Source of the DNA: Takakia lepidozioides
Taxonomy: Eukaryota > Plantae > Bryophyta
Assembly: GCA_030704615.1 (NCBI GenBank)
Contig: CM060734.1
Location: forward strand, 16,430,001-16,494,000
Length of the DNA stretch: 64,000 nt
Reading direction: 5' to 3'
This document shows positions 8,722 to 61,450 of this stretch, one piece after another. Every line of letters starts with the position of its first letter. Position 1 is the stretch's first letter. The notes under the pieces were generated by a model, which ran no database searches, was not told the DNA's origin, and worked only from the letters and a program-made list of their open reading frames with translations. The position numbers and the translations under genes are program-made.

Positions 8722-11586
8722 ATGGAGTTGCTCAAAGCTGGATTGGTCAAGTTGTCAGGCGGGGAGTATGCCTCGGCAACGGTGATGCCAGCTAAGAAAG
8801 ATATCTATGGCAATTGGACAGAAAGAAGGATGTGTGGGGACTATCGTCCTGTGAACCGTCAGACTAAGTCCGATAGATATGCCACGCCAACTCCAGAGGA
8901 GATCTTTGATGCCATTGGGCATGCAAAGGTGTTTAGCACATTGGACTTGCGATCCGGTTACCACCAGTTGCCAATCAAAGAGGCTGACAAGCAAAAGACG
9001 ACATTCTGGGGGATTGACCAACATGGGAATGATTGTTTGTACCAATGGCGGTTCTTACCGTTTGGGTTGAAGAATGCTCCTGCAGAGTTTCAGAGGGTCA
9101 TGGATAGGATTCTCGCGGGGCTAGACTTTGCCCGGTGCTACATTGATGACATCATCGTCTTTAGTGCTACGGTTGAGGAGCATGAGAGACACCTTCAGGT
9201 GGTGTTTGAACGCTTGAGAGTGCACGGGTTGAAACTGCATCCCGGAAAGTGCAAGTTCTTCCACAATCAGATTGAATATCTGGGCCACATGACATACCCT
9301 GGAGGATTGGGTGTTCAACAGACAAAGGTGGAGGCCATTGCATGCATTCCACGCCCCATGGATGTGAGCAGAGTTCGTGCTTTCATGGGATTGACAAACT
9401 ACTATTGACGGTTTGTCAAGGGATTTAGCAGCATTGCAAAGGCTCTTACCAAATTGACCAAGGTGGGTCAGTTGTGGCAGTGGGAGGAGGAGCAGGAGGA
9501 AGCCTTTAAGGAACTCAAGGCTCGATTGACTTCTGCACCTATTCTGAGGCGACCTATTCGGGGGCGGTCTTTCCAGCTACATACGGATTGGAGTATGCTG
9601 GGGATTGGAGCAGTGCTCACACATGAGGGTGATGAGGGAAGAGAGTTCGTAGTGGCATATGCTAGCCGCTCGAACAATGATGCCGAGGCAAAGTATAGTT
9701 CCTATGAAGGGGAGTGTCTAGTTGCGGTATGGGCAGTGACACATTTCAGATGCTACCTCTATGGCAATCTCTTCACCCTTGTCACGGATCACCAACCATT
9801 GAAGTGGTTGATGGAGTCAGACAAGCTTACAGGGAAGCTTGCACGGTGGGCACTTATGCTTCAAGAGTACGACTTCCAAGTGGTGCATCGAGCCGGTATT
9901 GTCAATCGGGATGCAGATGGATTGAGTCGTAATCCATGCACGAGCGAGCATGATGATACTGGAGCTCGGTGGCATGGTGAGACGGACGAGGAGATGGTGT
10001 GAGGATGACATGCATCGGTTTTTTTGTGCATTCTAGCAATGGGAGCTCAAGCTGGTTCATCCCATGCGATTGGTCATGTAGATAGCGTGCATGACGATCC
10101 AGAGACTAGTGAGGAGTTTGGTGGTGCTAAGGATGTGCATGAAGATGCAGCAATGTTGGCATACCTTCGTACCGGAGAGACAGCAGCCAGTGTGACTGCT
10201 AAGGAGAGGGATCGGGTCCTACAACGAACCAAGAGGTTCAAGTGGGAGGGGACTCACCTACTCCGGGTATGGGAGGATGGACGAGTGAGGATTGTGCTTC
10301 ATCCAACAAAACGAGCGCGATTGGTACGCCATGCCCATGAAGAGTTGGGACATTTTGGGGTGCGGCGCACTCATAGTTTGCTGCAAGGGCAGTATTGGTG
10401 GCGGGGCATGCACACGGATGTGCAACAGTTAGTGGCAAGGTGCATGGTGTGTGATAGAGTGCGGGCTTCTTTCAACGCCCCTACTCCACAATTGCATCCT
10501 TTACTAATTATGGGTTTGGGCTATCGTTGGAGTCTTGACTTCGCAGGCCCATTGCCATTGACGATTCGTCATATCAAGTATGTGCTGGTAATGGTGGAAC
10601 ACTTCTCCAAATGGATTGAACTGGTGGCATTGCCTGACAAGGCAAGTGAGGGGGCTGCGTATGCATTCTTAGATCGAATGCTTAGCCATTTTGGTGCTCC
10701 AGCCGAGGTACTCACAGACTAGGGGAGAGAGTTCTTGGGGGAGTTTTAGGCTTTGTGTGAGCAAACCTTGATAGATCGCCGCACTACTTCTCGGGATTAT
10801 CCCGAGGCTGATGGCTTGGTGAAGAGAGTTGTTCAGACAGTCAAGAGAGGTTTGCGTAAGTACGGTTTGCAGAAAAGACACCTAGGAGATTGGGACCTTC
10901 AACTGCCTTGGCTAGCTATGGGCTATAGGTTCAGCAAACAAGCTTCACTTGCCTCCTTCTCACCTTACTTTCTTCCCTTCGGCCGAGAGCCGGATTTGCC
11001 TGCATCTATTCGCAGGGAGGCTGCAATAGTTCTCAACCTTGATGATCCAGATGTGTGGACACAAGCATGCAGTGCCCAGCGGGCAGAGTTGTTCAAGAGA
11101 GTCATGCCTATGGCTTTTGAGAACCTTGCTATTGCCCAACACCGAGACACATTGAGATACGCCACTATACGTGGAGGGGGATATCGGCCAAATGTTCGGC
11201 GTTTCCACCCTGGGGACTATGTGTATTTGTAGCAGACAACGCCTACGACCTTGGATGTCACAGCAGGACGTGTGATTCTAAGGGTCAGGGAGGTGTTGCT
11301 TTCAGGAGTATTGATTCTGGAGGGTCAAGATGGCATGGTATGGAAGGACCATGTGCGCAATTGTGCGCCATGTCACCTTCCACATGTGGATGGGAATATA
11401 GATCCTAATCTTGCAGTGGTACCTGCAGGGTTGCGTTGCATGCTATGTGGGCATGCTGGTGGCGCCGCAACCATGTTGGTGTGTGACAAATGTTCAAGGG
11501 GGTGGCACATGGGATGCTTGACACCGCCACTTGAGGAGGTTCCTATCGGAGAATGGTTGTGTCCACGATACCTTGGACAGAGGTAG
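8722..11586 (+). pseudogene. Ty3/gypsy pol (RT-RNaseH-integrase-PHD finger), 5'-truncated, with in-frame stops
   Basis: RT motifs [31 protein letters not shown]. RNaseH LHTDWS...YEGECL...TDHQPL. Integrase HEELGHFG..CMVC, SLDFAGP, VLTD. C-terminal PHD CMLC..CDKC..WHMGCLTPPL..W.CP. The ORFs are collinear in one frame, separated by single stops. Confidence 0.93.
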
Positions 11587-11828
11587 TGGGCATGACAACG
11601 GTGAGGCGGACAAGTGATCCAAGGTCTAACTAGTGGGGCTTCAATGCCATCGATACTCAACTGAAGATCATGGATTGCATGAAGGCGACTAACGATGGGG
11701 CTACGTTTGCACCCGGCCTCTTGATCTATCGACTTCAGGTGTTGGGACTTGTGCGATTGAAGACCAAGCGATGATCTTATTGGGGTGGATACTTGCAAGC
11801 TATCTGGTGTTAGAGGGACCTAATCACC

Positions 11829-12060
11829 AGCTAGGGGGGCGATTGTGGCATGGCTTTCTAGGACTATATGTTAGGAAGTGTGGTTGGACAGCGATGTATG
11901 TTGTGGCACGATGCTTAGGTGCACGACAACTGTCATGGTTTTGTTTGTGATTAGTTAGAAATAGTTATTTCTAACTAATTATGACATTATACATTTATAT
12001 TTGTATTTTGTTGGCATTGGGACTTCAGTTGTTGAATTAGTGAAGGTTTTCTTGGTGGGG
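11829..12060 (+). mobile_element. Polypurine tract (11829-11843) and truncated 3' terminal repeat of the PHD-gypsy copy
   Basis: AGCTAGGGGGGCGAT followed by TGTGG at 11844. Internal GCACGACA-AC-TGTCA junction at 11921-11935. Homologous to the minus-strand end at about 32560-32320. Right boundary approximate. Confidence 0.7.
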
Positions 12061-31821: not shown

Positions 31822-32528
31822 TGTCATGCGCATACATATCGCTACACAACTACATCGTTGCCCAAAACCACACAACACATGTGCACACCACACACTAATA
31901 TACCACTAGTCCACCACTAGTCCAGCCACTAGTCTAACCACTAGGCTACAACTAGTCAGTCACTAGGCTGCCACTATGCTGCCCACTATGGCAGTCACTA
32001 GTCCACACAATAGATAACGAAGAAGAATACAAGCACAAGCTCATGCGAGCTCACAAAGCTGAAGCATAAACTCATGCATATATAACCTCATCACTCAAAT
32101 ACAAGTCAAGCCAAGTGCACCCCACGCCATGGGGAATCCACACTACGGCGCCATAGCTAGGCGCGGTGAGGCTCCACTCGAGAAAGATGAGCCTCCCGCA
32201 CTTGCCGTGAAGACAACCACTCCAGGGCCTAAATCTGCCTTGACCCCTGGATTGACACTTGGGCCAATCCCAAATGTCAATATGTAAAAGCTAGCTATTT
32301 CCTAGCTAGTTTCACACTAGTGGTAAAATAACTTGACAGCTGTCGTGCGCATACATATCGCTACACAACTACATCGCTATCCAAAACCACACAACACTTG
32401 TGCACACCACACACTAGTATACCACTAGTCCACCACTAGTCCAGCCACTAGTCTAACCACTAGGCTACAACTAGTCAGTCACTAGGCTGCCACTATGCTG
32501 CCCACTATGGCAGTCACTAGTCCACACA
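31822..32528 (-). repeat. Split terminal repeats of the DNMT/PHD-gypsy element: Y1 (32528-32341), X2 (32338-32013), Y2 (32009-31822)
   Basis: Y1 and Y2 are 188-bp near-identical direct repeats. X2 matches 61139-61450. PPT AGCTAGGGGGGTGAT immediately precedes Y1 on the minus strand. Confidence 0.9.
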
Positions 32529-32840
32529 ATCACCCCCCTAGCTAGTGCTTAGGTCCCTCTAAGTCCAGGTAGCCACAAGATGTGATAGTGACCATAGCCT
32601 CACTAAGTCCTCCACCATTATCCCTACTACACTCAAACTCGATAGATCAAGAGGCCGGGTGCAAGAGTTACCCCATCGTTAGTCGCCGTCTTGCAACCTG
32701 TGAACTTGAGCTTGGGATCTCATGTATTGACTCCTATGAGCTTGGCCTCCCATGTCTTGTTAGCTGCCTCCAGTCATGTCCACTGCCACTATCCCAAGCA
32801 GTGTGGACACAACCAATCTCCGTCAGGAACCTTCTCAAGA
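32529..32840 (-). mobile_element. End of PHD finger, 3' UTR and PPT of the DNMT/PHD-gypsy (piece C, distal part)
   Basis: Minus strand LEKVPDGDWLCPHCLG* (32840-32789). The UTR is homologous to 11590-11843. Confidence 0.9.
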
Positions 32841-33566
32841 TGTCGCGGCCCTTTGCCTTGAGGGCAGGGGGTCGGGACACATGAGGGGCTGCCCCTCTGG
32901 TGGGGGCAGCGGCAGCGATAGGTATGGGGGGGCTGAAGCACCCTTGAGTGCCCAAGGCACTCAAGGAGGCGGAGGCGCTTACTAGGTGGAGTCCCGCACA
33001 CCGGGTTGCGGTGGGGGTGGCTCCACAAGGGGTGGTGGTAGCTTAGCGGGACTTAGTGGGGGTGGCATAGGACTCACCATGGGGGCGGAGACCTCGTGGT
33101 GGGAGTCGTGGGGAGTCTTGGGACTCATCACGGTCCAGAGGGGCCGTGGTGAGTGGGCCAAGACTCACCGCGACTCATCACCGGGAGTCGAGGGTTTTCG
33201 TGGTGGTTCGCCATAAAATGGCATGGCTGGTTGTGAAACCCCGCGGACAGCTACAGAAGTGTATATAAGGGGAGTAGTGACCCCGAGAACGGTGCAAGCC
33301 CGTTGGTGACCAAAAACTAGTGAGTAAGCGAGCGAGCCGGAAAGCGACCAAAGAGTGGGGAGCTGTTCCGGACTGCCATCTACCAAAGGGAATTCTCCTA
33401 GGCCAAATAGGTGGAGGGTTTAGTGGGAATCGAAGGGGGACCGTTATGTCCCGGTGAGCAGCCGAAGCTCCAAGTTGGCCCGGCGGCCAGGTTGGGAGTC
33501 AGGCGCGCGCATCAAAGCGAGTAACTATGACTTGAAGGGGAGCTTACCGAAGTGAGGTGCGCGACA
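32841..33566 (+). repeat. 5' LTR of chromovirus
   Basis: About 98% identical to 39082-39810 by manual comparison. Confidence 0.95.
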
Positions 33567-33568
33567 CT

Positions 33569-33580
33569 TGGTATCAGAGC
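33569..33580 (+). promoter_or_regulatory. Primer binding site, tRNA-iMet
   Basis: TGGTATCAGAGC, 2 nt after the LTR end. Confidence 0.93.
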
Positions 33581-33621
33581 TTAGAGTTCAGTACGCGATC
33601 GTCCTTGGGATTGGCCTCATC

Positions 33622-36600
33622 ATGGGGTCAGGCAAGCCAAAGCGAAAGCGGAACGGCCCAAAAGATGATGATCCTGGTGAGCCCGATGGGGGCGACGTGT
33701 CACCGAAGCGGCCGTTTGAGGAAGCGACGCAGGTTTTTGAAAGCGAGGCCGCTCAAGAGCGGGAGGAATCTGAGGAGTCGGAGCCCGAGGAATCCGTGAG
33801 AGCTCCGACCGACCAACAGATGCCTCCCATGCCGGCAGCCTTTTGGGAAGGGTTGTTGGCGCAGTTTGGCGGGACGTTGAAAGACGTGTTGAAGGCGGCT
33901 AATGCCACTTCCACTAAGGCAAAGTTTAAGTGAAGCCTAAGGAACCCGGCACCTTCGAGGGCGTCCGAAATCGGAAGGCACTCAACACCTGGCTCTTGGA
34001 GCTAGAGCAGTACTTCCAGGCGGCCAAGTTGAGTGACGAGGATCGGGTGGAAGTGGCTCCCACCTATTTGAGGGGCTATGCTCAACAATGGTGGCAGAAA
34101 CGCCTTCACGACCGAGGCCAAGCCCGGAAACCTTGAACTGGAGTGGGTTCAAGGAATTGATGAAGAGACAGTTTGTGCCCCTCAACGCGTCCTGGCTTGC
34201 CCGGGACAAGATGAGGAATTTGAAGCAAACAGATGACATTCGGGGGTATGTCCAGGCTTTCAATGTGCTGTTGCTCGAAGTCGCGGACATGGCAGAACCA
34301 GAAATGGTCTTCAACTTTGTGGCGGGACTGGCCCCATGGGCCAGGCGGAAGTTGGAGGAGAAGCCACCCAAGACTTTGAACGAGGCAATTGAGAGGGCTG
34401 AATGTTTCTCGGATGTCCCTAGGGGTGAGAGACAAGGCCGTACGGAGCTGAACCACAAGAAGACCCGGCGGGAAGGTGACTCCTTCCGACCGGAAAAGAA
34501 GTGGGATAGGCCACGCGGCGACAATGGCACGTGGAAATCGAAGGGAGGGCCTTCACACGTCAAGGCGGCACCCGGTGCTTCGAAAGGAAAAGCGGGTGGA
34601 GCGGCTTATGGCGGACAGAAGGCACCTTTGATGGAGTGTGTTTCAATTGCGGGGAGCCCGGGCACATGGCCAAGAAGTGCACAAAACCTCGACAATTGAA
34701 CATGACTCGGGCACCACGGAGCTGTCGGAAGATACCATCAGTCGCTTGGTGGAAGCGGTGGTCGCCAGGACTTGCAAGGTAGGCAACTATTCTTGTGAGT
34801 TGTATCAGGAAACTGGCGCCCTGCGTAAAGGGAGTCAGTTATTGTTCGTGGATGGGATAATATCCGGAACTAACGTGTCGTTGTTGGTGGACACAGGAGC
34901 GTCGCACTCCTTCATGACGCCGGTGGCGGCGCGAAAGTTGGGACTCCCGACAAGTGACGTGGGGGCCTCTATTGAGGTGCGCTCTGCCAAAGGAGAACCT
35001 CAGTTGGCGACAAGGTTGGCGTTTGATGTTCCTCTTCAACTGGGGAGTTGGGAGGGACGTGAGAACTTCACCATCTGCGAGATCGATGGAGTGGATCTCA
35101 TTTTGGGGATGACCTTTTTGAGCAAATCCGGAGCGGTCATAGATGGCCGCAAGAGAGTAGTCACGCTGCCATGTGGGAATGGTGGCGAGGTTTACGAGTG
35201 TCGAAACGCCCAAATCCGTGGGAGGGCGAATAAACCTTCTGTCAGCAAAGGAGTGGGCCGTGGAGGAGGCACACGAGCCCCAATTTTTGCTTTACATTAG
35301 AGAAGTGAAAGGAGAAGGCGATGGGGAGCCGAGCCCAGATTGGATCAAGGGGATTTTGGAGAAATACCAGGATGTGATGCCGGAGGATTTACCAAGCGGC
35401 TTGCCACCGCGAAGAGGAGTTGACCACAAGATTGAGGTGATACCGGGATCGGAACCGCCTGCCAAGGCGCCCTACCGGTTGAGCCACAGAGAGTTGGTCG
35501 AGCTGAAGACTCAGCTCAAGGATCTAATGTCAAAGGGGTACATCCGGCCGAGTAAGTCACCTTACGGAGCCCCGGTGCTATTTGCAGACAAGAAGGATGG
35601 GACGCTGCGGATGTGTGTCGATTACAGGGCTCTGAATAAGGTGACTATCAAAAACCGGTACCCTTTGCCAAGGATCGACGACCTCTTCGATCGGTTGGCA
35701 GGAGCAAGTATTTCAGCCGGATCGACTTGCGCTCCGGCTATCACCAAATTCGGGTGGCGGAAGGAGATGAGGAGAAGACCGCGTGCAGGACAAGGTATGG
35801 TTCATATGAGTTCTTGGTGATGCCTTTTGGGCTCACCAATGCACCAGCGACATTTAGCACGCTGATGAACAGCCTTTTCCAGGAGTGGTTGGATGACTTT
35901 GTGATCGTGTACATCGACGACATCTTGGTGTACTCGAAAACAAAGGAGGAGCACCTGGAGCACCTGAAAAGGGTGTTCCAAAAATTGCGGGAAGGGAAGC
36001 TGTATGCCAAAGCTTCAAAGTGCGAATTCGGGGTCACAAAAGTGGAGTTCTTGGGCATGTGATTACACAGGATGGGATCAAAATGGATGACAGAAAGGTG
36101 AGGGCGATCTTGGACTGGGAGCTTCTGACTTCGGTCTCGGGAGTGCGATCCTTCCTAGGACTCGCCTCCTATTACCGGAAGTATGTGAGAAATTTCGCCA
36201 AGATTGCGGGGCCGCTGTCAGACCTTCTGTGTAAATCTAAAGTCTGGGCATGGAACACCTTTTGTGGCCAAGCTTTTGCTGAATTGAAGCAGCGGATGGC
36301 GGAAGCTCCAGTCTTGAAAATCCCGGAGTTCGATCGTCCGTTCGAGATACACACAGATGCGTCGGACTTCGCGATTGGGGGTGTACTGATGCAAGATGGA
36401 CGCCCAGTGGCTTACAAAAGTAAGAAACTGAATGAAGTGGAGCGACGGTGGCCGACGCACGAGAAAAGAGATGAAGGCGGTGGTGCACTGTCTTGAGCTT
36501 TGGCGCCACTATGTTGGTTCCAACCCAGTGAAGGTGTTCACGGACAATGTCACGGTGAAGTATTTTGCCACGCAGCCCAAGTTGTCCCCAAAACAACTTA

Positions 36601-38177
36601 GGTGGCAAGATACTTTGGCGGTGTTCGACGTGGATATCCAGTACAAACCGGGACGAGACAACGTGGTGGCCGATGCTTTAAGTAGAAAGCAGCAGCTCTT
36701 GTTGGTGTACAAGAGCGAGACGACGCTCCAAAGGAAGATCCGGAAGGCTTGTCGGAAGGATGAGCTGGCGAAGTCCGTGATGCAGGACTTGAGGATGGGG
36801 GTTAAATCGCAGTTCCACTTGCAAAATGGACTGCTCCGGTATAAGCAAAAGCGTCTCTACGTACCGAATGGAGGGATCAGAGATAGCCTCTTGAGAGAAT
36901 GCCATGATAGCCCGCTTGTGGGCCACGGCGGAGCCAAGCGCACTGCGGCACTCTTGAAGAAAGAGTATTTCTGGCCCAAACTGAGGGAGGAGGCAGAGGA
37001 GTATGTCAAGACATGCACCACATGCCAACAAAACCGGAGCGAGTACAAAAAGCAAGCGGGGCTGTTACAACCTTTGCCGATTCCAGAGGGGACTTGGGAG
37101 AGCGTCTCGATGGATTTCATGACTGCTATACCGCTGTCAAAAGGATTCGATGCAATCATGGTGGTGGTGGATAGGTTCAGTAAAATGGGCCATTTCATCC
37201 CCACCAAGGAGACGGCAACGGCGCAGGAGACAGGGCGACTTTACTTCGCCCACGTCTTAAAGCATCATGGAGTCCCGAAGGATATTGTCTCGGACCGCGA
37301 TCCAAAGTTTACGAGTAAATTTTGGAGGGCACTTTGGAAGAAGATGGGGACGAGGCTGAAGATGAGCACCGCCTTCCGACCTACGACCGACGGCCAAACA
37401 GAAAGAGTGAATTCCGTAGTGAAGCAGTTCTTGCGGAATTACGTGTCGGCAGACCAAACAGACTGGGTGGAACACTTAGACGCGGCAGAGTTCTGTTATA
37501 ATAACACAGAACACTCCGCAACGGGAGTTTCCCCTTTCGTATTGGTCTATGGAAAAGCACCTTTGGTGCCGACAAGTTGGGCCGCCCAGGACGTTGAGGA
37601 ACCGGCAGTAGCGGTGGTACTGGAAGAACGCGAGCGTTTGTTGAAGCTCGCAAAGTACAACATTGCCAAAGCTAGGAAACGGTATGAAAGGCAGGCGAAT
37701 CGAAAGCGGAGGGAAGTGAAGTTTGAGGCAGGCACAGAGGTCTGGATGAACATCAAGAATTTCCGACTACCTCCGGAAGTGAGTCCAAAGTTCGTACCTC
37801 CGTATGCGGGACCCTTTTGCATTCAGAAGGTTATGAATGAGGATGTGTATGAATTGGAGCTGCCGGCAAACAGCAAGGTGCACCCAGTATTCCATGTCTC
37901 CCTTTTGAAGCCTTACTTCAAGGATGAAGCGCGTCCGAATCGGCATCAAGTGTTGCGTCCGCCACCTATGCTGTTGGATCATGAAAATGAACCTGAGTAC
38001 GAGGTGGAGGCAATACTTAAGTCGAGGAGGTTCAAGAACCGAGAAACGGAGTATCTCGTCAAATGGAAGGGCTATCATCATGTGGAGGCATCTTGGGTGC
38101 GTGCCTCAGAAATGGGAAACGCATCCAAGGCGGTCGCAGCTTTCGAAGGGCGACCTCAAAAGCGGAAGAAGCGTTGA
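33622..38177 (+). pseudogene. Chromovirus gag-pol polyprotein, broken by several frameshifts
   Basis: CCHC knuckle CFNCGEPGHMAKKC, protease [22 protein letters not shown], RNaseH HTDASD, integrase SMDF/SDRD/TERVN, chromodomain EYEVEAILK..YLVKWKGY...SW. Start codon approximate. Confidence 0.93.
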
Positions 38178-39081
38178 TGGGGACATCAACCTTGGAGCAT
38201 GGGGGAGGAAATGCATGCTTAGCCCGGCTTAGCTAGCTTAGGGATCCGATTGCAAAAACTTGTATTGTACAAAACGTGCTATAAATGAAATGGATTCCAA
38301 ATGTTGTGCGTCCTATTTTGTTTGGAATGGTGATGCATGGTATGGTTGGCTAGTGTGTAGAATGCATGCTAGCTTATAAGAGTGGGAGAGGTAAATTGGG
38401 TTAATCGTATGTTTGCGTAGTGCCGAAATCGGGTGACTCCTATCCGAGGGGCAAGGAAACTTGCGCCTTCTTTGGGAGTTCACATGCTAGTGCGTACCTG
38501 GCGCGTGTGCGTACTATAACTGCGCTACCGAGGGGGTTGCCTTGTAGTGCGGGCTAACACGGAAGCTACGTGCTTCCGTTCACGTACTATAATCATGTAG
38601 CCTCGGGATGAAGTCGTAGTGCGGCTTCGGCGTGTTCCCGTACCTCAGGCCAGCATTCCAAGGCGGACCCAATTGTAGTGATTGGGGCGCACGGTTGGTT
38701 CAAGGTTATCTTCCTAGTCAAAGAGGGTTCCAGGGAACCCTTGCTCAAGGTGATGCCAAAAGCGGCATCATGAGCGATCGCAAGCAATGTTGTTGCAGTA
38801 AGGCGATTCGATCCTCGGGGAGGATCGTTCCTTGGCCTTGAAGTAGGCCAAGAATAGTGCACTGGGAAGAGCTGGAGAGGCTCCACCCTTGGCCGGGACT
38901 TGGAAGAAGTCGGCCGAACTAGCTAGTGGAGAGTAGAGTCAAGTGTGGGGTTTGGTTCTTTGCCATGGGACGCCATGGTACGGAAACAAACTCCTTGATG
39001 TGGGACGCCACAACTTGGATGTTCGTTTCTACAAAATGGACAAGTCGATGAGGACATCGACTCCCTGTTGGTAGGGGTGTG

Positions 39082-39810
39082 TGTCGCGGCCCTTTGCCTT
39101 GAGGGCAGGGGGTCGGGACACATGAGGGGCTGCCCCTCTGGTGGGGGCAGCGGCAGCGATAGGTATGGGGGGGCTGAAGCACCCTTGAGTGCCCAAGGCA
39201 CTCAAGGAGGCGGAGGCGCTCACTAGGTGGAGTCCCGCACACCGGGTTGCGGTGGGGGTGGCTCCACAAGAGGTGGTGGTAGCTTAGCGGGACTTAGTGG
39301 GGGTGGCATAGGACTCACCATGGGGGTGGAGACCTCGTGGTGGGAGTCGTGGGGAGTCTTGGGACTCATCACGGTCCAGAGGGCCGTGGTGAGTGGGCCA
39401 AGACTCACCGCGACTCATCACCGGGAGTCGAGGGTTTTCGTGGTGGTTCGCCATAAAATGGCATGGCTGGTTGTGAAACCCCCGCGGACAGCTACAGAAG
39501 TATATATAAGGGGAGTAGTGGCCCCGAGAACGGTGCAAGCCCGTTGGTGACCAAAAACTAGTGAGTAAGCGAGCGAGCCGGAAAGCGACCAAAGAGTGGG
39601 GAGCTGTTCCGGACTGCCATCTACCAAAGGGAATTCTCCTAGGCCCAAATAGGTGGAGGGTTTAGTGGGAATCGAAGGGGGGGCCGTTATGTCCCGGTGA
39701 GCAGCCGAAGCTCCAAGTTGGCCCGGGCGGCCAGGTTGGGAGTCAGGCGCGCGCATCGGAGCGAGTAACTATGACTTGAAGGGGAGCTTACCGAAGTGAG
39801 GTGCGCGACA
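39082..39810 (+). repeat. 3' LTR of chromovirus
   Basis: Preceded by PPT GGTAGGGGTGTG and followed by TSD CAAGA. Confidence 0.95.
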
Positions 39811-40031
39811 CAAGAGGTGGTGTCAAGCATCCCATATGCCAACCCCTTGAGCATCGATCACACACCAGCATGGTGGCTGCCCCTTTGGCAGACCTACAGA
39901 GCATGCACCTCAAACCTGCAGGTACCACTGCCAAGTTTGGGTCAACTCTGCCATCGACATTGGGAAGGTGACATGGCGCACAATTACGCACATGGTCCTT
40001 CCAAGTCATGCCATCCTGACCCTCCAAGATC
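39811..40031 (-). mobile_element. N-terminal part of the PHD finger of the DNMT/PHD-gypsy (piece C, proximal part)
   Basis: ILEGQDGMTWKDHVRNCAPCH...CMLC..CDRCSRGWHMGCLTPPL, which joins 32840 in frame across the TSD. Confidence 0.92.
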
Positions 40032-41419
40032 CATCGTCCTCATGAAACTGCATTGGAGCAACGTGAAAATCTACACTTGTACATTGCGAGACCATTGTCA
40101 ACCGTATCGTTTAAAGCACAGCCTCATCGGACGTTTTCTTCTTAAGGCCAAGCATCCTTGCTTGCCTCTGTTTTTGAATAGCGATCGGACGTTGAGGTGA
40201 GGAACATGCGGACTGTTGCCTGCAGTCATTTAGTCAGCCTCTAGATGTTCGAACGGACGACTGGAATCGCACGCCTTCAACTGTTGCTCCTTGTAGGTAC
40301 CCTAGTCGTATATACTCCTGAGCGCTTTGGCTTCATGGACGTCGCAGACTCTTCCATTTGCGGGCCATACTAATAGCTGTGTCGATGTTTCGCCATTTCT
40401 GATACAAATGGTCATTGTTCTTCACTATCTGTGTGCAATTCGGCTCTCATGGCTCAAAAACACTCAAAAAACAATTCGCGCATTTTTTAATGCACCTACA
40501 TATATGGCGACCAATGGGGAACACTCGTCCCGAGGGTGAAAAAACCCTGAATCACTGGTTTGACAACTCTTTAAATAGGTACACACATTACTAAAACATG
40601 ATTGGCTTTACCATTGACCTAGACCTTTTATTTGGCTCAAACTGGAAGCTAGCAAAAACTATAACTCTGAACCTGCATACTTTCTACTCATGGGGGGTTC
40701 TTCTCTCTGGTCTTGCAGTTTGTCTTGTTATGACAATATCCTGGTGATCCCTTCGAATTCACTCTTCTCTTTTGTGCTTTCTCATTCATCAAGAAGATAA
40801 CTATGACCGAGTTTTGTTCAAGAATTAATGAGCTTCACCGCGGTGTGCTTCGCCCTGGTGGCCATGTGTTCGATTTTAAACATGCTCCCGTCTTCCCCTG
40901 TCCGTGTGGTACATTCTCCGAGTTTGACTTCCAAACTATCCTTCCACTTGACGGCCACTTTTCTGACGTTAACCCGCGTCCACCTGTCACTGACTCTATG
41001 GACTGTGCAACCCGCGTAGGCTGTGTTGGGCTGTGACAGGCTGTGTAATGATGTGATGGGCTGTGATGACTGTGTGATGCTGTGATGGGCTGTGATGATT
41101 GTGTGAACACCTGTGTTCTACGCTCAAGCCATACACATTCGGCTTAACGATAAGTACTTCATGCTCCGTTGGTGTTATTGGTGTAGGTTGTGATGGCATC
41201 TGTGTTACCCTGACACCAACAACTCTGATCATATGACATAAGGTCCTAGCTATTGCTAGAACGAAAAATTTTGGCGTCATTATAGGAGTCAATATGCCCC
41301 TCGCCTGATAATATAAAAAATTTGAAAACCCATTCCTCTTCGGAGAGAGTTCGAGTCCCAGATAGTTTTTTTTCAAAACCGCCATTCTCCCCCACCGGAC
41401 TGGGTGTGAATTCCCAAGA

Positions 41420-48089: not shown

Positions 48090-48560
48090 GGGGCGTGCTA
48101 GATTGTGAGCAGCTCAAGGCTTTTATTTTGTTTTTTTTGTTTTTTGTTTTTGGGGTGAATTGTCATGTTCCAAGAGGGGCTGGGAATTAAGGTGTCGTTG
48201 ACGACACCTTAATCTGGCACATTCGATTTTCGATTTCGATTTCCCGAATGTGCCAAATTAAGGTGTCGTCAACGACACCTTGATTCCCAGCCCCTCTTGG
48301 AACATGACAATTCACCTGCCACCTTAATCTGGTTGGTCTTCTGGGCTGGAATTAAGCTCTAACAGGGGCTAGGAATTAAGGTGGCGTTGACGCCACCGTA
48401 ATGCCGAGTCTGTTTCCCTCTACGAACATGGCTCCTCGCCAAGGCTTTTATTTCATTTTTATTTTTATTTTTGGTTTTTGGGGTGAATTGTCATGTTCCT
48501 TGTGAGGGCTGCGAATGACGCCACCTTAATGCCGAGTCTGTTTCAATGGTAGAACATGGC
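48090..48560. mobile_element. DNA transposon terminus with a 72-bp-arm hairpin
   Basis: Starts GGGGCGTGCTAGATTGTGAGCAG. Inverted arms at 48154-48225 and 48245-48316. Confidence 0.75.
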
Positions 48561-48778
48561 TATTCGCTACGTCTAAATGGATGCAATGGATAGATACAAT
48601 GGATGTAACACATCCAGTCTACATTCCCTTGAAAGGGCTGATCAACCCGCGGTAATAGGTGACACCCGCGGAAATAGGCCCTGTATGCATGCTGACGTGG
48701 CGTGAGCCTGTGCTGGGCTCACGGGCTCCTGGGCTCACAGGCTCACGCCTCCGGGCTCACGGAATAGCACCCCCCTCT

Positions 48779-52504: not shown

Positions 52505-52551
52505 GAGGGTAGCTACCGTGTGAGCAGCTCACGTGAGCACACTAATCGTGA

Positions 52552-53535
52552 GGTGCGGTGGTCTATCAAGGCTTTATCACACAAAGTCTGAAACTCCCCC
52601 AAAAACTCTCTCCCTTGGTCCGTGAGTACCTCAGCTGGAGCACCAAATCGGCTAAGCACACGATCCAAGAATGCATACGCAGCCCCCTCACTAGCCTTGT
52701 CAGGCAATGGAACCAACTCAATCCACTTGGAGAAGTGCTCCACCATCACCAATACATATCTGTGGTGGCGCATAGTCAGTGGCAACGGTCCTGCGAAGTC
52801 AAGACTCCACCTGTAGCCCAATCCCATGATTGGTAAATGATGCAACTGTGGTGTAAGGGTGTTGAATGAAGCACGCACCCTGTCACACACCATGCACCTA
52901 GCCACAAACTGTTGCACCTCTGTATGCATACCACGCCACCAATACTGCCCTTGCAGTAAACTGTGAGTGCGTCGCACTCCAAAATGCCCCAACTCCTCAT
53001 GGGCATGCCGCACTAACCGTGCACGCTGTGTGAGGTGAGGCACAATCCTCACCCGACCATCCTCCCATACTCAAAGCAGGTGTATCCCCTCCCACTTGAA
53101 CCTCTTGGCTCATTGTAGGATCCGATCCCTCTCCTTGGCAGTCACACTAGCTGCCATGTCTCCAGTGTGGAGGTAGTCCAACACAACCGAATCCTCATGT
53201 ATATCTCTGGCACCACCTGGCTCATCACTAGCCTCAGGGTCCTCAGACACTCCGTCTACAGTCATCCATGTTGTAGGTCCAACCTGACATCCCGATGCCA
53301 AGATACACAAAAAGGCAGATGCATGCCATCCCGGCACCATCTCCTCGTCCGTTTCACCATGCCACCGAGCTCCAGTGTCATCCTGCTGGCTCGTGCATGG
53401 ATTGCGATTCAATCCATCCGCATCCCTATTGACCAACCCCGGTTGATGCACAACCTGAACATGTCTCTCATGCTCCTCCACCGTAGCACGAGAGGCAAAG
53501 CAATACCTATAAGCCTCAGGAACCGCCGTATACAT
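52552..53535 (-). pseudogene. Residual RT/RH junction and integrase (HHCC plus core N-half)
   Basis: ATVEEHERHVQVVHQPGLVNRDADGL...HEELGHFG...CMVC...SLDFAGP...VLTDQGREF...IDHRT. Confidence 0.9.
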
Positions 53536-53645
53536 CGTCTCTCTCCTCTAGTGACAATAGGTCCAATGTCAGGCTCCCAATTGCCCTTCGTAACTGCAAC
53601 CTTAAGTCCAGCAGACTTAGAGGTAGAGGACGCGTCCCGTGGTTG

Positions 53646-56600
53646 CTATGCCGCAACCTCTTGAGCAATACTCCCTACCTGCTCAGTCAATGATAAGGCC
53701 TCATTCTGCCCCATCATCTCATCCTTGAGGACCTCCTCAACCCGAGAAGAATCCCCAACCTCATCCATCACAGCCGCCTTGGCTGCCAACTCCCTTTGAA
53801 CCTCGAGCACCTCCCACGTGTGCCATGGATGCCTGCACCCCGTGGTCCTCACATGCTCGCCCCCACTCACTACCTGTACCGTCTCGGTAGGTAGAGAGAC
53901 CATCGAGGGAAGTGTATTCCGCACTCTGCGTTGCTCAGCCATAGCCAAGCTGATAATCCAGGTCAAGCAATTGAGATCCATTGCTTGCCCCAACACTTAA
54001 CGACGTGATGCCTCAGAAAGAGACGACACTGCCGTGGTACCAGTGGTAAAACCCATTGCCCGCTCACGCTCGTCAGCATTAGGCTCCACTAATTGCTGCA
54101 ACTGAGCATCCCACAGGAGGCCAGGTCCACTATCCCGGAAAGCATGCGATCCTGGGAAGCTCAGCAGTGTAGGTAATGCTGCTCGTGGTTGACCCACCTT
54201 GTTGACCACTGCCAAAGGCAAACGGTCATCGTGTCTCACACGCTGAGACTGCCTCCATGTGTCCAGAATGCTATCCACTGTGAGATGTGCTGGCCGCTGT
54301 ACCCCATCAAATGCACGCTTGAGCAGTGCGGGTGGCATCAAGTTAATCCACCATAGTCGTGGACGATGAGCCCGTGACCCCACTGTAGCTGCATCTAGCA
54401 ACACTGCTGACCCAAGCCACGACCGGACTTGATGCACACTGGCCATCACCCTGGCCCGAGAATCGCCCATCAGTGGCACATTCTCCAAGATGTATGCTGG
54501 AGATACAGCTTGATGAAGATACAAGTGGCGCAAAACCTGCACCATCTCCCAAAATGGATCCGACCTCGAGTCTCGCAATCCATTGCCATGCCCAGCTGAT
54601 GAATGCCCTTGGCAGGGCCAACCTGCCACTACCAGATCAATAGAGCCAACCCGCTCCAAATCCTGCGCCCCCAGCAACGAAATGTCTACTGGCAAGGCCT
54701 GCTGATATCCACGAATTGCAGACACCGACAACAACTCAGGGTACCGCTGCACCAACTGAGCAACATGGGAAAGTGAAACGCGTCGTGCAGTCTCATCCCT
54801 CTCCACATACAGGTAATGCCGAACACGTACACCTGCCTGTAACACAGCAGCCAATCCGGTGTTGATCCCGCCAAACAAGTCCAGAAGACAAATGCCTTCA
54901 TCCGGATACTGCCACACAATAGGTGTGGTGTCCAATGGAGACAACTGAGGTGGTCCTGGTGCAATCCCTGCACTCTCCTCCTCTCCTGACGGTACAAAAG
55001 CCCCCACCCAGGCTTGTTGTACCCGTCGATCAGCATCCCGCTGCAAATCCTTGCTCGTGCCCCACAATGGAGTCTGAGCAACCATGGTAGGCAACTCCGC
55101 CATACCATACATGTCATCCTGCTCTCCCGGAGGTGGCACATCCTCTGAATGAGCGTTGCCCTCAAGCAACTCTATAGGCCAACTCATTGCCGCTGTGAAT
55201 GCTGCTAGTGTCGGCATCTTGCCTCGTTGGGCAACCGCAACTCCTCCTATGAACGTCACAGGGAGCTGCACACGCCGGCCCTCCCCTGACTGCCATGCAG
55301 GCCTATAGGAAGCTGACTCCTCCCAAAAATCCAGGGTGAAGCCCATGGGGTACAACACTGCCCCACCAACCAGGACATCGTATGAGACCGCGTCTGTCAC
55401 AATGGCCTTGGCTCGCATCACTGAGCCATCTGTAGGGTGATCCGGCCGTAGTCTGATAGCCAACTCATGCCGTGTCATTCCCCAAGCCTGCTCCGATCCT
55501 CCTAGAGACGTCCGTATCTGGAAAGGACAAGGCTCCATATCCGCCTCCGTGAGGCCCAAGCCTGCAATAGCAGCTCTGCCCAGCATCAATGGCTGAGCTC
55601 CCGAGTCCAACAAGGCCCGCAGTGGCTGGTACCTCTTGCCTGCCGGTCCACTCAAACAGAAAATGCCATCCTGGTTGTCTAACATGACAACTCCAGGTGT
55701 CACCATGGCGCGCTCAATGGCTGGCCTAGCTGGCAGCTCCATCAACCTGGCAGCTGCAGCTTGCCATGGCGCCGCCGTGGCAATCTTGACCCTCAAATCC
55801 GAGGATCCCTCCGGCACTACACCTCCCACTATCTCCGCAGAAGATGAAGTAACCTCCCCACTCTCACAGAGTGTAGCTGCCAGCCTGAACATCTCAGCTG
55901 GTCTTACCCCCGGCGTCGCAATCATGGTAGCCGAGAACAATGGAGTCTGGCACACAGATGTGGCCGCTCCTAGCAGCACACTAGCTGCCGTAGCCTTGGC
56001 AACACTAGGTAGTAGTGCTACCCGTGTAGCTCTCCCCAATGGCATAGTAACCTCCGCCTCGGTAATAGTCGGGCGAGAACTAGGTGCCATGGATGGCGTC
56101 GACACTGTCTCCGCCAATGTGAATGATTGAGGAAGCCTAGCCTGACGGCTTGCCTCCCCACGCTGTGGATCCAACTCCACCTCTGCACCTCGTGGCTCAG
56201 GAACTCGTCCTGCTCCTCGAGTCACGGCTGCAGCAGACTCCACCTGCACTAGTGGTAGTGCTGCTCCACACATGAATCCCATGCCTCCCATATCTCCTCC
56301 CTCAGGAGCAGGAGGTGGACCATCCGGCCTTAAAGCCGGTACCACCTGAGCTGTAGCCATGGCAGCGAGCCTCTGCTCTAGCTGCTGAAGCCGGTTGGCC
56401 ATGCGTTGGTCAACACCCTGACCTCCGCGTCCTTGGCCATGTTGAGCTTGCCCTTGGCCTGCACCTCGTGGCTGGCCACCTCGTCCTCTCTGGGCTGCTC
56501 CACCTCGCCCCCGGCCACCATTGTTCCCTTGGAACTGGCCTGGGCGTAACTCAGGATGCAAACCATAACACTGGGCCTCTCCATGCCCGTGCTTGCCACA

Positions 56601-56996
56601 ATGCCCACACTGCAACTGTGCAGGCTGTGCATGTGCCGGCCCTTTGCCTCCCTCTGGGCAATCCTTCTTGATATGGGGTCCTCCACATGTCCAGCACACC
56701 ACATCTGCCCGTTGTTGGCCAACAAATGAAGGGAGAGACCCCTGCATCTGAGGTCCTCTCTGCCCTTCCCTGAGCTTCACCTGAGCCCCTTTGTTGCCTT
56801 GAGCACGTTGAGGTAGTGGTTGGTTAGGAGCACCACTACCCCGTGCTGTCTCCTTAGCAAATCCCACCATGATCACTCGTTCCTCCACCATGTTGAGCTC
56901 TATCCGCTCTGCCAGCAAAAACACATTTGCTAAGGTGGGTTGGGCCGCTTGTAGGAGAGTTGCATCCCGCACCCTTCTCCTCAGCTCCTTGTCCAA
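53646..56996 (-). CDS. Gag C-terminus (2 CCHC knuckles) - aspartic protease - C5 cytosine DNA methyltransferase (DNMT3-like) fusion; one in-frame stop at 53997-53999
   Basis: Knuckles CWTCGGPHIKKDC and CGHCGKHGHGEAQC; protease LLDSGA. DNMT motifs: I LLDLFGGI, II VERD, IV LVVAGWPCQG, VI ILENV, VIII AHRPRLWWINL, IX ERERAMGF, X RR*VLGQAM. Confidence 0.93.
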
Positions 56997-57826
56997 TATC
57001 CCATATCAGAATTGGACTGCCTAAGGTCCGTAACCCCTTGGGTTACATTTATCAAGCGCCTCATGCAAGTGAAAGCCTCCATCAAGCTCTCGGTCGGCTT
57101 CCATTGGAACTCTTGCAAGCTTCGCAACTTCTCTGTCCTCACCCCTTGGTAGTTCCTCCTCAACTCTTTGAAGAACTCCACAACAGGGTTGAAGGCAGGC
57201 ACGGGTACTAGTGCCGGTGCGGTAGTGGCCTGGGTGGACGTCGTAGCTACTGTACCACCAGTCCCACTAGTCCCTCTGCTACTTTCTGAAGCTGCCGGTG
57301 CAGCGGCAGGTGTAGCCACTGCCCTTGTGGCTCTAGTGCCCCTAGTGATGGAGACATAGTCGGGTGACCGGTACATCCTCCACTCCTCGATCTCAACCTC
57401 ATGCCCTCGCCTGAACTCATGGTAATCATCCATAGGCGGCCCCTCAAGGTGCTGAAACAGCCCCTTCCATGCCATGAAAGGCGTTAATAGTTGTGGATTG
57501 CGCATTTGCTGCAAATCACACCAACTATCAAACTCTTGGATAAAATCATCCAACTCGATGGTGCCCACCGCCCCAGAGTACCTTCGTGGCCCCTTGGTAG
57601 CTCCATACATCTCCTCCATTGTGTCCCACAACAATGGCAAAGAAACAACTTGCACCGCCGATATGAATCCTCCTGATTCACAATCCAAATCAGAACCTTC
57701 CGTAGAAGACATAGGAGGTGAAGGTGGCCTAAACCGCACACCTCGTCTTGTGTACCCACTAGTATCGCTAGTGCTCGAACCGGCACTGTCCCCAACAACT
57801 AGTGGCACCTCCGTGTTGACACTCAA
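56981..57826 (-). CDS. Gag N-terminal region, frameshifted from the downstream gag-PR-DNMT ORF
   Basis: Capsid-like RRYSG..ELDDFIQEFDSWC...EKLRSLQEFQWKPTESLMEAF. The alternate frame AVQF*YGILDKELRR joins the 999-aa ORF near 57020. Confidence 0.75.
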   Translation of the reverse strand: MSVNTEVPLVVGDSAGSSTSDTSGYTRRGVRFRPPSPPMSSTEGSDLDCESGGFISAVQVVSLPLLWDTMEEMYGATKGPRRYSGAVGTIELDDFIQEFDSWCDLQQMRNPQLLTPFMAWKGLFQHLEGPPMDDYHEFRRGHEVEIEEWRMYRSPDYVSITRGTRATRAVATPAAAPAASESSRGTSGTGGTVATTSTQATTAPALVPVPAFNPVVEFFKELRRNYQGVRTEKLRSLQEFQWKPTESLMEAFTCMRRLINVTQGVTDLRQSNSDMGYWTRS

Positions 57827-58494
57827 CCGGTCATGAACATGTCCCTAACCCCCTCTCCACAAGGTAACCGGGTAGAGAACCTGTTGCGGCTTAGGGTTTG
57901 GAATACTAAGTTCCTAACATAGCCTACACTTGTACCTGCATCCACCGCAAACACTCTTATGGTTGGCTGGTCATCACCTCCAACCTCACCACAGGAGAAA
58001 CAATGATGGTCTGGCTGGTCATCACCCCAGCCTCACCATCGACAGCATGCTCTAGGACTGGCCGGTGATCAAATCCGGACCAATCACCTATAAAAACAAG
58101 CGCCCACACAAAACTAGCATGGCGCACAGTCAAGCCTGCAGGTATGGAGGGGATCCAAACACAAGAAATCAGAACGACAACTCCCCCACACCAAAAACAA
58201 CTCCACGGTGTTGCTCCTGCAAGGACACCCCAGCCCAAACCCGGACTGACTCTTGCCTCCACCTACGGAAAGGTCTTGGCCTAATGAGAAGGTGAAACTA
58301 TGAGGAAGAGAAGCTAAAGCAATGCCTAACCCCAGCATGCCCTCATCCCAACACTCTTCCTCTCCTCTCTTCCCTCACTTGCATGACCATGGGAATATCA
58401 TGAAGATACTCCTCAAACCGCCCTCCACGAGCTTCAAAATTCGGCCTTCGAGACCACATACCAATCCTTAGGCAGTCCACCAGTGCCTCCACAA

Positions 58495-59575
58495 GTCAGC
58501 ACAGGCCCACACAGCTCACAGGCCACAGCCTGTCACAGCCCTACACAGGTCACAGGGTCACAGCCCCACAGGCCGCAGCCTGTCACAACCCTACAAAGGT
58601 CACAGGGTCATAGCCCCAAAGGCCACAGCCTATCACAGCCCCTCATAGCCCCATAGGCCACAGGGCACAGCCTGTCACAGCCCGACACAGGTCACAGGGG
58701 TCACAGCCCCAAAGGCCACAGCCCGTCACAACCCCACAGGCCACTAGGCACAGCCTGTCACAGACCGTCACAGCCCCACAGGCCACAGGCCATAGCCTGT
58801 CACAGCCCCTCATAGCCCGTCACAGCCCCACAGGCCATAGGGCACAGCCTGTCAAGCCCCTCACAGCCCCTCACAGCCCCACAGGCCACTGGGCACAGCC
58901 TGTCACAGCCCCTCATAGCCCGTCACAGCTCGCCACAGCCTGTCACAGCCCATCACAGCCCCACAGGCCACAGGGCACAGCCTGTCACAGCCCGCCACAG
59001 CCCCACAGACCACAGCCTGTCATAGCCCCGCACAGCCCATCACAGCCCCACAGGCCACTGGGCACAGCCTGTCACAGCCCCTCACAGTTCGTCACAGCTC
59101 GCCATAGCCTGTCACAGCCCGTCACAGCCCCACAGGCCACAGGGCATAGCCTGTCACAGCCCCTTATAGCCCGTCACAGCCCCACAGGCCACGGGGCACA
59201 GCCTGTCAAGCCCCTCACAGCCCCACAGGCCACTAGGCACAGCCTATCACAGCCCCTCACAGCCCGTCACAGCTCGCCACAACCTGTCACAGCCCGTCAC
59301 AGCCCCACAGTCCACAGGGCATAGCCTGTCACAGCCCCTTATAGCCCATCACAGCCCCAAAGGCCAGGGGCGCAGCCCATCACAGCCCGTCACAGCCTCG
59401 AAGGCCACTGGCGCAGCCCGTGACAGCCCCAAAAGGCCACCGGCACAGCCCCTCACAGCCCATCACAGCCCCAAGGCCACCGGCGCAGCCCGTCACAGGC
59501 CCTCACAACCCGTCACAGCCCCGAAGGCCACCGGCACAGCCCCCAAGGCCACAGGGACAGCCCGTCACAGCCCCA
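58495..59575. repeat. CACAGCCC/GTCACAGCC minisatellite (~1.1 kb) in the element's 5' UTR
   Basis: Dozens of 10-11-bp CACAG-core units with higher-order structure. Confidence 0.92.
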
Positions 59576-61125
59576 TCCATGGCCGCTCTGGCAGTTTAGC
59601 CATTTCTCCAAGGGGTTTAGCCACGCCAAGCTAGGGTTTGTGTCTCTTGGACTCTAGGCTTCTTTCCACCGAGCTATGGCGGCTGTGAGGAAATCAGCAA
59701 GGTATTCTTGCTCTTTCGGCTCCCACACACCACCATAGTAGCCCTAAGCCATGAGGTGGTTGCCACAAACCAAGCCTTCTTTCTCACTTAGCCTCCCCAA
59801 ACACGCCACTAAACTCAATGGCAAACAACCAAGCCCTGCTGGTTCCCAGCCCTTGTGAGCACTCATTCAAGCACTCTCCTTGGCCATAGCATCTATCTTA
59901 GAGCCTATTCCATCCCCCTACACCTACTGCTTCAAGAGTTGCGCTCCCTTCAAGCTTGAAGTTGAAACCCCAACTCACATAGGCCCTACAAGTGCTTTTC
60001 TTTCACTCCAAGTGGAAACCAGCCCTAGACCTTCCATTCTAGCTCTCTAAAGCTTGAAAACAAGAGCCTCAATGGGCTGAAGGCATGCTCCACACATGCC
60101 CCACTCTCACCATAAGAGAATCAGCTCCTTTGCTTCATTTCTTGCACCCACAAACCTGAAAATACAAGCTTTAGCAGAGCATGCTCCACATGCCCTACAG
60201 GGAAACCAGCCCCTTCCTTCCTTTCTTGCACTCCCACACCTGAAAGTGCAAGCCTTCACCAGGCTAATAGCATGCTCCACACATACATTGCCCTCACATA
60301 AGGGAAGTCAGCCCTTCCCTCTTCCTTGCTTGCCCTCCAAGCTTGAAGATGGAAGCTTCAATGAGCTGAATACATGCTCCACACATGCAACCTCTTCACA
60401 CAAGAGATATCAGCCCCCTATCTTGGCTCCTTGGCTCCTTGATGCTCTCTAAGACAAGACTAAGCACTCCATAGCCCTTGCCAAGCTCCTGAAACCCTAA
60501 GGCTTACATTTCCAGCCACAAGACACTCCTCTTGTGGTGCAAGAACTTTTCTTCCAAGCTCTGAAACCCTAGGTGCACATTCCATGGCCTTGCCATACCT
60601 CTTAGCTCCTGTTCCAGCCTCGCTCTTGCCATGGCAAGAGCCCTCATACCGCTGGAGTTTCAGATTGAAACCCCCAACTCAACATAGCCACAGATGCATT
60701 GGCTTGCATACAAGAGAAATCAGCCATCTCTCTTCACTCATACCTCCTTATGAGCTTGAAGTTGGAGCTCCCGATAACTGTGACTTACATCTAACACCCT
60801 CGCAGCTCCACATTGCTGCAGCTCCTTAACTTGGCCTGCAGCTGAAGAAGACGACCACCAGTTCACCCACTCGAGACCAGCATCTCCCCCGCTTCGCACT
60901 AGAAGCCCAAACTTGGTTGCCATAGCATTGAGCTATGCAACGCCGCTCTTCAACATAGGCTACCCGCCTCTCTATCCATTGCAAACCTGCAACCTATTCG
61001 CCTTTGCACTCTATCCACTTTGGATAGGCTCATGCACGGATCCCTGCACTCTAGGCTGAACCGCTTCTCATGAAAACACAAGTGCTACAAAACAACTCGA
61101 ACCTGGCACTCACAGACTCGAGCTG

Positions 61126-61137
61126 ATCTTTCTCGAG
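61126..61137 (-). promoter_or_regulatory. Candidate self-priming primer-binding site CTCGAGAAAGAT
   Basis: Directly follows the ...TTATCA end of repeat X. Complementary to ATCTTTCTCGAG inside X. It does not start with TGG as a tRNA PBS would. Confidence 0.6.
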
Positions 61138-61450
61138 TGATAACGAAGAAGAATACAAGCACAAGCTCATGCGAGCTCACAAAGCTGAAGCATAAACTCA
61201 TGCATATATAACCTTATCACTCAAATACAAGTCAAGCCAAGTGCACCCCACGCCATGGGGAATCCACACTACGGCGCCATAGCTAGGCGCGGTGAGGCTC
61301 AACTCGAGAAAGATGAGCCTCCCACGTTTGCCGTGAAGATAACCACTCCAGGGCCTAAATCTGCCTTGACCCCTGGATTGACACTTGGGCCAATCCCAAA
61401 TGTCAATATGTAAAAGCTAGCTATTTCCTAGCTAGTTTCACACTAGTGGT
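61138..61450 (-). repeat. 5' terminal repeat X1 of the DNMT-gypsy
   Basis: Nearly identical to 32013-32324. Lacks the outermost 14 bp seen in X2. Confidence 0.9.

Follow-up and report, generated by a model that had tools for sequence, protein, structure and literature searches.

The window (the whole 64,000-nt stretch of Takakia lepidozioides DNA that was analyzed) carries a decayed retrotransposon which, together with its relatives, very probably primes reverse transcription from its own RNA, without a tRNA. Compensatory changes in the primer and the primer-binding site (PBS) are kept across diverged families and thus support the tRNA-independent self-priming put forward in a preliminary description of this DNA. 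We further consider it probable that priming with about the first 12 nt of the element's own RNA is combined with a permuted repeat layout, A-coding-B-A-B, that is generated via end-joined cDNA reopened by integrase at an internal palindrome; internal cutting of such an end-joined intermediate appears reasonably likely from the termini and joints described below. For the wider lineage, a green-plant group of Ty3/gypsy elements reaching from charophytes to bryophytes, we slightly favor the reading that its members self-prime and normally integrate via an end-joined 2-LTR intermediate, the integrase bypassing the cDNA ends and cutting a dedicated U3 palindrome at only one of the two sides.

Domains and parts of the window element

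By its domains, the window element is a Ty3/gypsy retrotransposon with a methyltransferase and a PHD finger, present here in decayed form (Table 1). It is a non-chromovirus related to KnitGypsy-Dnmt3. Its pieces map onto two intact relatives, L016 and L097, both of which have the Ty3/gypsy domain order PR-RT-RH-IN with an rve integrase and consist of two long ORFs with one stop between them (PR-DNMT, then RT-RH-rve-PHD). The best PDB match for the RT is Ty3. A methyltransferase domain, assigned at the C5 level, is present in the window ORF (PF00145, E = 1.2e-9) as well as in L016 and L097. The PHD finger lies at the integrase C-terminus, both in the element (39811-40063 (-)) and in the separate diverged relative (11233-11583 (+)), where chromoviruses have a chromodomain; PHD finger and methyltransferase would give a single retrotransposon lineage a reader and a writer. 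Between ORF1 and ORF2 stands one TAG, with CAR-YYA behind it, in the window (53640-53648 (-)), L016 (5083-5091), and L097 (3489-3497). We take the TAG CAA CCA of the window to fit the UAG-CAR-YYA leaky-stop readthrough signal; the methyltransferase would be made at the Gag level, and RT-IN-PHD by readthrough only.

A quick RT tree was built from 134 rows (midpoint rooted, without bootstrap and without labeled Tf1, Tcn1, Phygy, or Selgy rows); in it, 82 rows, including all PHD/DNMT and split-repeat elements, formed a clade (SH-aLRT 99) apart from all 13 chromo/SH3_Tf2 rows. Relatives among named proteins belong to Calypogeia, Marchantia, Sphagnum, Klebsormidium, and Cymbomonas. A GTDB scan returned one relative (L097) and four bacterial methyltransferases, and viral-contig scans returned phage methyltransferases only, or nothing. 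L097 (1-9285) is a complete plant-type DNMT/PHD gypsy contig placed in a GTDB cyanobacterial bin, where it is probably a binning contaminant.

Table 1 Features of the element and its surroundings (positions in the window)
Feature	Position	Strand	Remarks
Repeat A1	61138..61450	-	Distal U3 part, R, and U5; first 14 nt (TGTCAAG...) absent relative to A2 and other copies
TATA-like TTATCTT, weak, putative promoter	61336..61342	-	28 nt upstream of primer
Hairpin GAGGCTC-N14-GAGCCTC	61294..61321	-	Straddles predicted start; predicted primer lock in read-through or 3' context
Predicted self-primer ATCTTTCTCGAG	61303..61314	-	Predicted first 12 nt of transcript
Primer-binding site CTCGAGAAAGAT	61126..61137	-	Adjoins A1
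5' leader, ~3.3 kb	57845..61125	-	Tandem-repeat array at about 58480-59540
Gag-like ORF	56981..57844	-	Frameshifted from next ORF; homologous region ahead of ORF1 in related loci
ORF with zinc knuckles, protease motif LLDSGA, and C5 cytosine methyltransferase	53997..57005	-	PF00145 at aa 774-885; premature stop at end
TAG CAA CCA at ORF1/ORF2 border	53640..53648	-	Single stop
RNase H end and integrase (H2C2, rve)	52513..53547	-	RT and most of RNase H deleted
Integrase C-terminus with PHD finger	39811..40063	-	Interrupted by chromovirus insertion
Inserted chromovirus	32841..39810	+	Ordinary LTRs; 5-bp duplication CAAGA; PBS starting TGGTATCAGAGC
Polypurine tract (PPT) CTAGCTAGGGGGG	32533..32545	-	Motif also ahead of B in relatives
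Repeat B1	32341..32532	-	PPT-proximal U3 part; ends CACGACA
Palindrome GACA-GC-TGTC at B1/A2 joint	32335..32344	.	Halves equal the outer termini; putative site of integrase attachment
Repeat A2	32013..32338	-	Complete; starts TGTCAAG; second primer copy 32177-32188
Repeat B2	31822..32011	-	Fused to A2's U5 end; ends ATGACA, the element's right end
Separate diverged relative	8680..11990	+	RT, RNase H, integrase, PHD, PPT, B-like stretch; without 5' end in window

The preliminary description had called the repeat at the element's 5' side an LTR. It does belong to the repeat system, but it is not a plain LTR: it is repeat A of A-coding-B-A-B, and the split layout and the internal site had been missed. 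A1 and A2 differ at 6 of 312 nt. Both carry an allele (61144/32018) that makes up only ~2% of depth, which makes it probable that the two ends stem from a single copy. The chromovirus inserted in the element is young (LTRs 98% identical), and a second copy of it, 88% identical, lies at 2-1567, ending at 1567. The leader array (58480-59540) is built of 10-nt units, and an inverted fragment of it is found at 41019-41095. Other repeats in the window are large nested direct and inverted repeats at 4001-6677 (836-nt arms, 98% complementary), which resemble a foldback element or rearranged tandem copies, and two clusters of MITE-like palindromic repeats with TTAAGGTGGCGTTGACGCCACC-type units (48115-48567 and 28459-28964).

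The primer-binding site and its complement in the repeat

The PBS CTCGAGAAAGAT (61137-61126 (-)) directly adjoins the repeat end GTTATCA at 61138 and lacks the TGG of a tRNA-type site, just as had been reported. Its complement ATCTTTCTCGAG occurs only twice in the 64-kb window, at 61314-61303 (177 nt upstream of the PBS, in A1) and at 32188-32177 (both (-)), each time enclosed by GAGGCTC-N14-GAGCCTC (61321-61294 and 32195-32168). Primer and PBS form 13 Watson-Crick pairs in a row, which none of 300 dinucleotide shuffles equaled (best run = 10). The chromovirus in the same window, taken as a control, has an ordinary TGG-type site (PBS start TGGTATCAGAGC).

The complement had also been described as precisely the 14-nt loop of the hairpin. 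Its location in the loop stands, but the precision does not: an alternative letter at 61125 accounts for 42-100% of depth in four runs (allele fractions being contig depth in public sequencing runs such as X1 and X7) and lets pairing grow 4 nt into the stem arm, so the match is not exactly the loop. The 14/14 match claimed for 32168-32195 hangs on a private base at 32175, where ~99.98% of depth in run X1 has the other letter; the match usually comprises 12 nt and, in addition, the final A of the LTR. An uncompensated PBS change occurs in one contig of run X7. The PBS itself can fold back on a second CTCGAG that lies 9 nt downstream (61114-61138 (-)), and such a hairpin would rival the primer.

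Retention of the complementarity in diverged copies had been named as a test of self-priming. A metagenome scan, from which the best 80 of at least 298 relatives were kept, yielded together with L097 five further families beside that of the window. Primer and PBS pair at 12 of 12 positions in the window (ATCTTTCTCGAG/CTCGAGAAAGAT), L097 (ATCTTTGTCAAG/CTTGACAAAGAT), L016 (ATTCTTGTCAAG/CTTGACAAGAAT, a pair identified from the 3' end of L016), L030 (TAGTTCTTTGAG/CTCAAAGAACTA), and L044 (GTTTTTCTAGAA/TTCTAGAAAAAC). Across these five families, two or three kinds of base pair are found at 9 of the 12 positions, and any two families differ at 2-8 positions, every one of which is still Watson-Crick. 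The representatives were hand-picked and changes are shared among kin, so these changes are not independent events. The sixth family, L064, has 10 of 12 pairs, a value not above chance (equaled by 38 of 300 shuffles). The complementarity is thus kept across diverged families with compensatory changes. When the primers and PBSs of four family representatives were combined, own-family pairing runs were 13-17 and cross-family runs 4-9; the own-family runs were reached by 0 of 300 shuffles in three families.

Within families, pairing was scored over 13 nt, two row pairs in families 2 and 3 being the same locus. Four of the 11 rows of family 2 could not be aligned (primer or PBS deleted or replaced) and seven score 10-13; in family 3 (15 rows), eight score 13 and seven score 10-12. 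One to three positions are unpaired or wobble in 12 of the 22 alignable rows. L069 has one double-sided change inside its family, and most other within-family mismatches look like uncompensated decay after insertion. When complements were sought de novo upstream of 14 other loci, none of the candidate primer/PBS pairs was convincing.

The PBS might instead bind a fragment of a host tRNA or some other small RNA, the match to the repeat then serving as a structural stem of the leader or having arisen as a side effect of copying. Half-tRNA primers do exist in plant copia lineages (PMC6317226; this and the other papers are cited for their accessible portions). Such a primer is nevertheless highly improbable here: no PBS among the six families starts with TGG, and each of the six would need its own fragment in addition to a match to its own repeat ~30 nt below a TATA box. 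ARAGORN found no tRNA genes in the window or in 42 related loci.

The position of the primer points to the 5' end of the RNA. A TATA-like box lies above it in all six families, at a distance of 29 (L030), 32 (L044), 29 (L064), 27 (L016, counted to a 14-nt primer), 29 (L097), and 28 nt (window). The box reads TATAAA or TATAAT in the relatives, TATAG in L097, and a weak TTATCTT in the window. TATA boxes lie ~30 nt from the transcription start, and the primer is therefore likely the RNA 5' end, as in Tf1. On this evidence, we hold with good confidence that the primer is the transcript 5' end rather than a loop primer. A downstream TATATATG (about 61208), stronger than the window TATA, was set aside as the promoter: it is not conserved in family 2, which has a TATA above the primer. 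Its use as promoter would leave only the 3' primer copy in the RNA.

The preliminary description had instead raised the possibility that loop and PBS form a pseudoknot and that cleavage then frees an internal primer, which we consider very unlikely. The 12-mer of the window does sit in a 14-nt loop. Of the five other families, four have a hairpin over the primer, which is strong in L016, L097, and L064 and weaker in L030, and the ViennaRNA folding covers nested structures only, so that a pseudoknot would escape it. In those four families, however, the primer lies in the stem, with a loop of only 3-5 nt, and L044 has no hairpin. In the window, the 5' arm of the stem is upstream of the TATA-predicted start, and the common 61125 allele carries the pairing into the arm; outer stem pairs are broken in a diverged subfamily. 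Moreover, a closed 14-nt loop cannot hold more than one helical turn unless the stem opens. When the RNAs were folded from the primer start (nested structures), mean primer-PBS pairing was 0.69, 0.98, 0.98, 0.77, 0.84, and 0.91 in the six families, the window being 0.69. Inclusion of the arm by adding 15 upstream bases lowered it to 0.00 in the window, 0.00 in L097, 0.01 in L064, and 0.13 in L016, and pairing was still 1.00 in L030 and 0.99 in L044. The hairpin is predicted from these folds to lock or hide the primer in upstream-started RNA or in the 3' copy in four of the six families. Three family-2 loci (L004, L008, and L026) carry different deletions over the hairpin and primer region inside A1, which suggests that the hairpin is a deletion hotspot.

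Split repeats, termini, and the proposed integration route

Both the window element and its relatives have the layout A-coding-B-A-B, and two complete terminal direct LTRs were not found. Among the best 80 of at least 298 relatives, the 3' end is B-A-B at nine distinct loci and B alone at eight, and 24 distinct 5' ends (26 rows) with unrelated flanks start with TGTCA (TGTTA in one). BLAST detected no B upstream of any of these 24 ends. The form A-B-A/internal/B, which is also to be expected from a free circle carrying two identical palindromes, was found at 0 of the 24; a simple symmetric circle model is therefore wrong or incomplete. The true ends of the element, TGTCA...GACA, are the two halves of the internal palindrome GACA-GC-TGTC. 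The B1/A2 joint reads GACA-NN-TGTCA, with NN mostly GC or its AC/GT decay forms.

Target duplications were scored on the relatives, the left end of the window copy having been lost. Six of nine two-ended loci (L030, L044, L054, L058, L061, and L026) among the same best 80 of at least 298 relatives have exact 4-bp duplications; of the others, L032 matches at three of four positions, L045 has no duplication, and L064 is ambiguous. L026 has the form A-internal-B, and copies of this form could be B1-B2 recombinants or 1-LTR-circle products. In the window species, positions 32338 and 32341 are the exact points at which contigs pass from the element into unrelated DNA (42 contigs at 32341, agreement 0.36). 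Assembly of repeats is difficult, and L016 and L097 are collapsed contigs with B-A-PBS in a row. It is hardly credible, however, that the split layout is an assembly artefact or results from tandem insertion or recombination of ordinary LTR elements, given that independent loci and families agree in layout, termini, and exact duplications, contigs of the window species and the Klebsormidium element as published agreeing as well.

The PPT is followed by C in 99% of depth, and the end that it sets is therefore no TG end. At the A2/B2 joint, the PBS-defined end is fused to the PPT-defined start within about 1 nt, and the A/B joint is near-invariant within families (3 of 3 family-2 loci, 3 of 4 family-3 loci). 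L014 (5538-5819) has A's end, 10 nt of the PBS, and B joined, as if the whole internal region had been lost. Changes private to one element and common to both its A or both its B copies occupy 16 (A) and 11 (B) columns in family 3, and 10 clear columns in A and 2 in B in family 2, where columns past the end of contig L001 were dropped from A. Position-fixed columns number 0 and 1 in family 3 and 0 and 0 in family 2, the single one vanishing once L058 is added. The sharing of private changes by both copies is consistent with the two repeats being made anew from a single template every cycle. Repeat distances are only slightly lower within elements (4.5-11%) than between elements (7-11%). Depth differences among A, B, and the two internal flanks do not equal copy numbers and were set aside.

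We propose the following cycle. Transcription would start at about 61314, inside A1. The 5' 12-mer would anneal to the PBS, a pairing indicated by the covariation, and RNase H, by analogy with Tf1, would cut the primer free for minus-strand synthesis. Ordinary strand transfers would then yield B-A/internal/B-A, with ends set by PPT and PBS. These two ends would be fused precisely, by ligation or a template jump, into the A/B joint that is seen in the elements. Finally, the DDE integrase would cut each strand of GACA-GC-TGTC behind its CA, would do so in the left repeat alone, and would insert A-internal-B-A-B, consistent with the observed termini and 4-bp duplications. As a speculation, the second palindrome may be shielded by the element's own cytosine methyltransferase; the site has CAG/CTG near the CG-rich repeat ends.

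Alternatively, the element could self-prime but copy A-coding-B-A-B directly from a transcript reading through A2 into B2, with no end-joining in each cycle. A read-through copying model of this kind has been proposed for the split-repeat elements PAT and Ngaro. It would account for the near-invariance of the A/B joint within families and for the one-sided layout without the protection of a second cutting site. Yet it predicts separate inheritance of A1 and B1 on the one hand and of A2's U5 and B2's 5' part on the other, whereas element-private changes are shared and position-fixed columns number 0-1, and a conserved PPT lies exactly at the start of B1. We therefore regard read-through copying as unlikely and prefer the end-joining cycle.

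Relationship to known systems

For plants, the accessible text of PMC6317226 lists self-priming only for Tcn1 chromoviruses and TAR copia, and SM-Tcn1 is described as having no primer site found (PMC2864245, accessible part). A 2026 preprint (10.64898/2026.05.21.726589) mentions streptophyte Gypsy-DNMT3, with nothing on self-priming or primer binding in its accessible part. For this lineage, no paper was found that treats its primer site, its termini, or its route of integration; most subscription literature and Repbase lay outside the search, which makes this weak evidence of novelty. Self-priming is a known mechanism, here apparently in a lineage for which no report of it was found, and the permuted integration route would be the more novel part. 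The present elements add an independent non-chromovirus plant lineage that very probably self-primes, with base-level covariation.

Circles with two LTRs are usually held to be dead ends, and whether they are integration substrates is a long-running question in retrovirology. If the proposed route is right, genomes record a lineage whose attachment site moved off the cDNA ends, and the question becomes testable with short DNA substrates. The route would also explain how a DIRS-like split-repeat layout arises with a DDE integrase, and the layout explains why LTR finders would mis-call such elements.

The closest published element is KnitGypsy-Dnmt3 of Klebsormidium nitens, which combines gypsy domains with a C5 methyltransferase in its polyprotein and has DIRS-type, A-coding-B-A-B repeats (PMC5890265). 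Klebsormidium RTs P0047, P0065, and P0074, which may not be the published copies, fall in the same SH-aLRT 99 clade. The comparison was made by RT proteins and by the published description, whose accessible portion gives no primer site, termini, duplication, PHD finger (the term PHD is absent from the main text of PMC5890265), or land-plant members, all of which are defined here.

Tf1/Tf2, Tj1, and the Tf1/sushi group including plant Tcn1 resemble the present elements in that the PBS adjoins the repeat and complements the 11-13 nt with which the RNA is predicted to begin (PMC7175516, PMC4600332, PMC6317226); in Tf1, bases 1-11 of the RNA anneal to the PBS, and RNase H cleavage follows base 11 (PMC7175516, PMC4600332). 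The present elements are not, however, members of the Tf1/sushi group, which the preliminary description had named as a precedent: they have no chromodomain and no SH3_Tf2-1, but a PHD finger and a methyltransferase, their RT lies in a separate clade, and their repeats are permuted. Tcn1 differs further by 5-bp duplications in 100% of its elements (PMC6317226), vs. 4 bp here. Phygy and Selgy are likewise non-chromoviruses of non-seed plants with 4-bp duplications but, compared by description, have tRNA-Trp or tRNA-Ala primer sites and no extra domain listed in the accessible text (PMC6317226).

The tyrosine-recombinase retrotransposons PAT, TOC1, and Ngaro also have split direct repeats, A1-B1-A2-B2 (PMC4157794), but the present elements have an rve integrase, TG..CA ends, 4-bp duplications, a PPT, and a PBS. 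A scan of eight ORFs, namely the two long ORFs of L016, the two of L097, and four short ones from these elements, detected rve but no tyrosine recombinase, and membership in DIRS/PAT/Ngaro was rejected on the finding of rve and of no recombinase family. Troyka was rejected as well, with CG...CG ends, a 3-bp duplication, and animal hosts (PMC12440569), vs. TGTCA...GACA and 4 bp here.

The palindromic CA-NN-TG joint that we propose to be cut into processed ends resembles the junctions of foamy viruses and of insertion sequences. Circle junctions of IS3, IS911, and IS30 have a palindromic joint that is cut by DDE enzymes. Foamy-virus integrase cuts the palindromic joint of 2-LTR circles (PMC1180852). 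In those systems the joint is formed from the cDNA or IS ends themselves, whereas here it would be a dedicated copy inside U3, and the real cDNA ends would be fused and kept.
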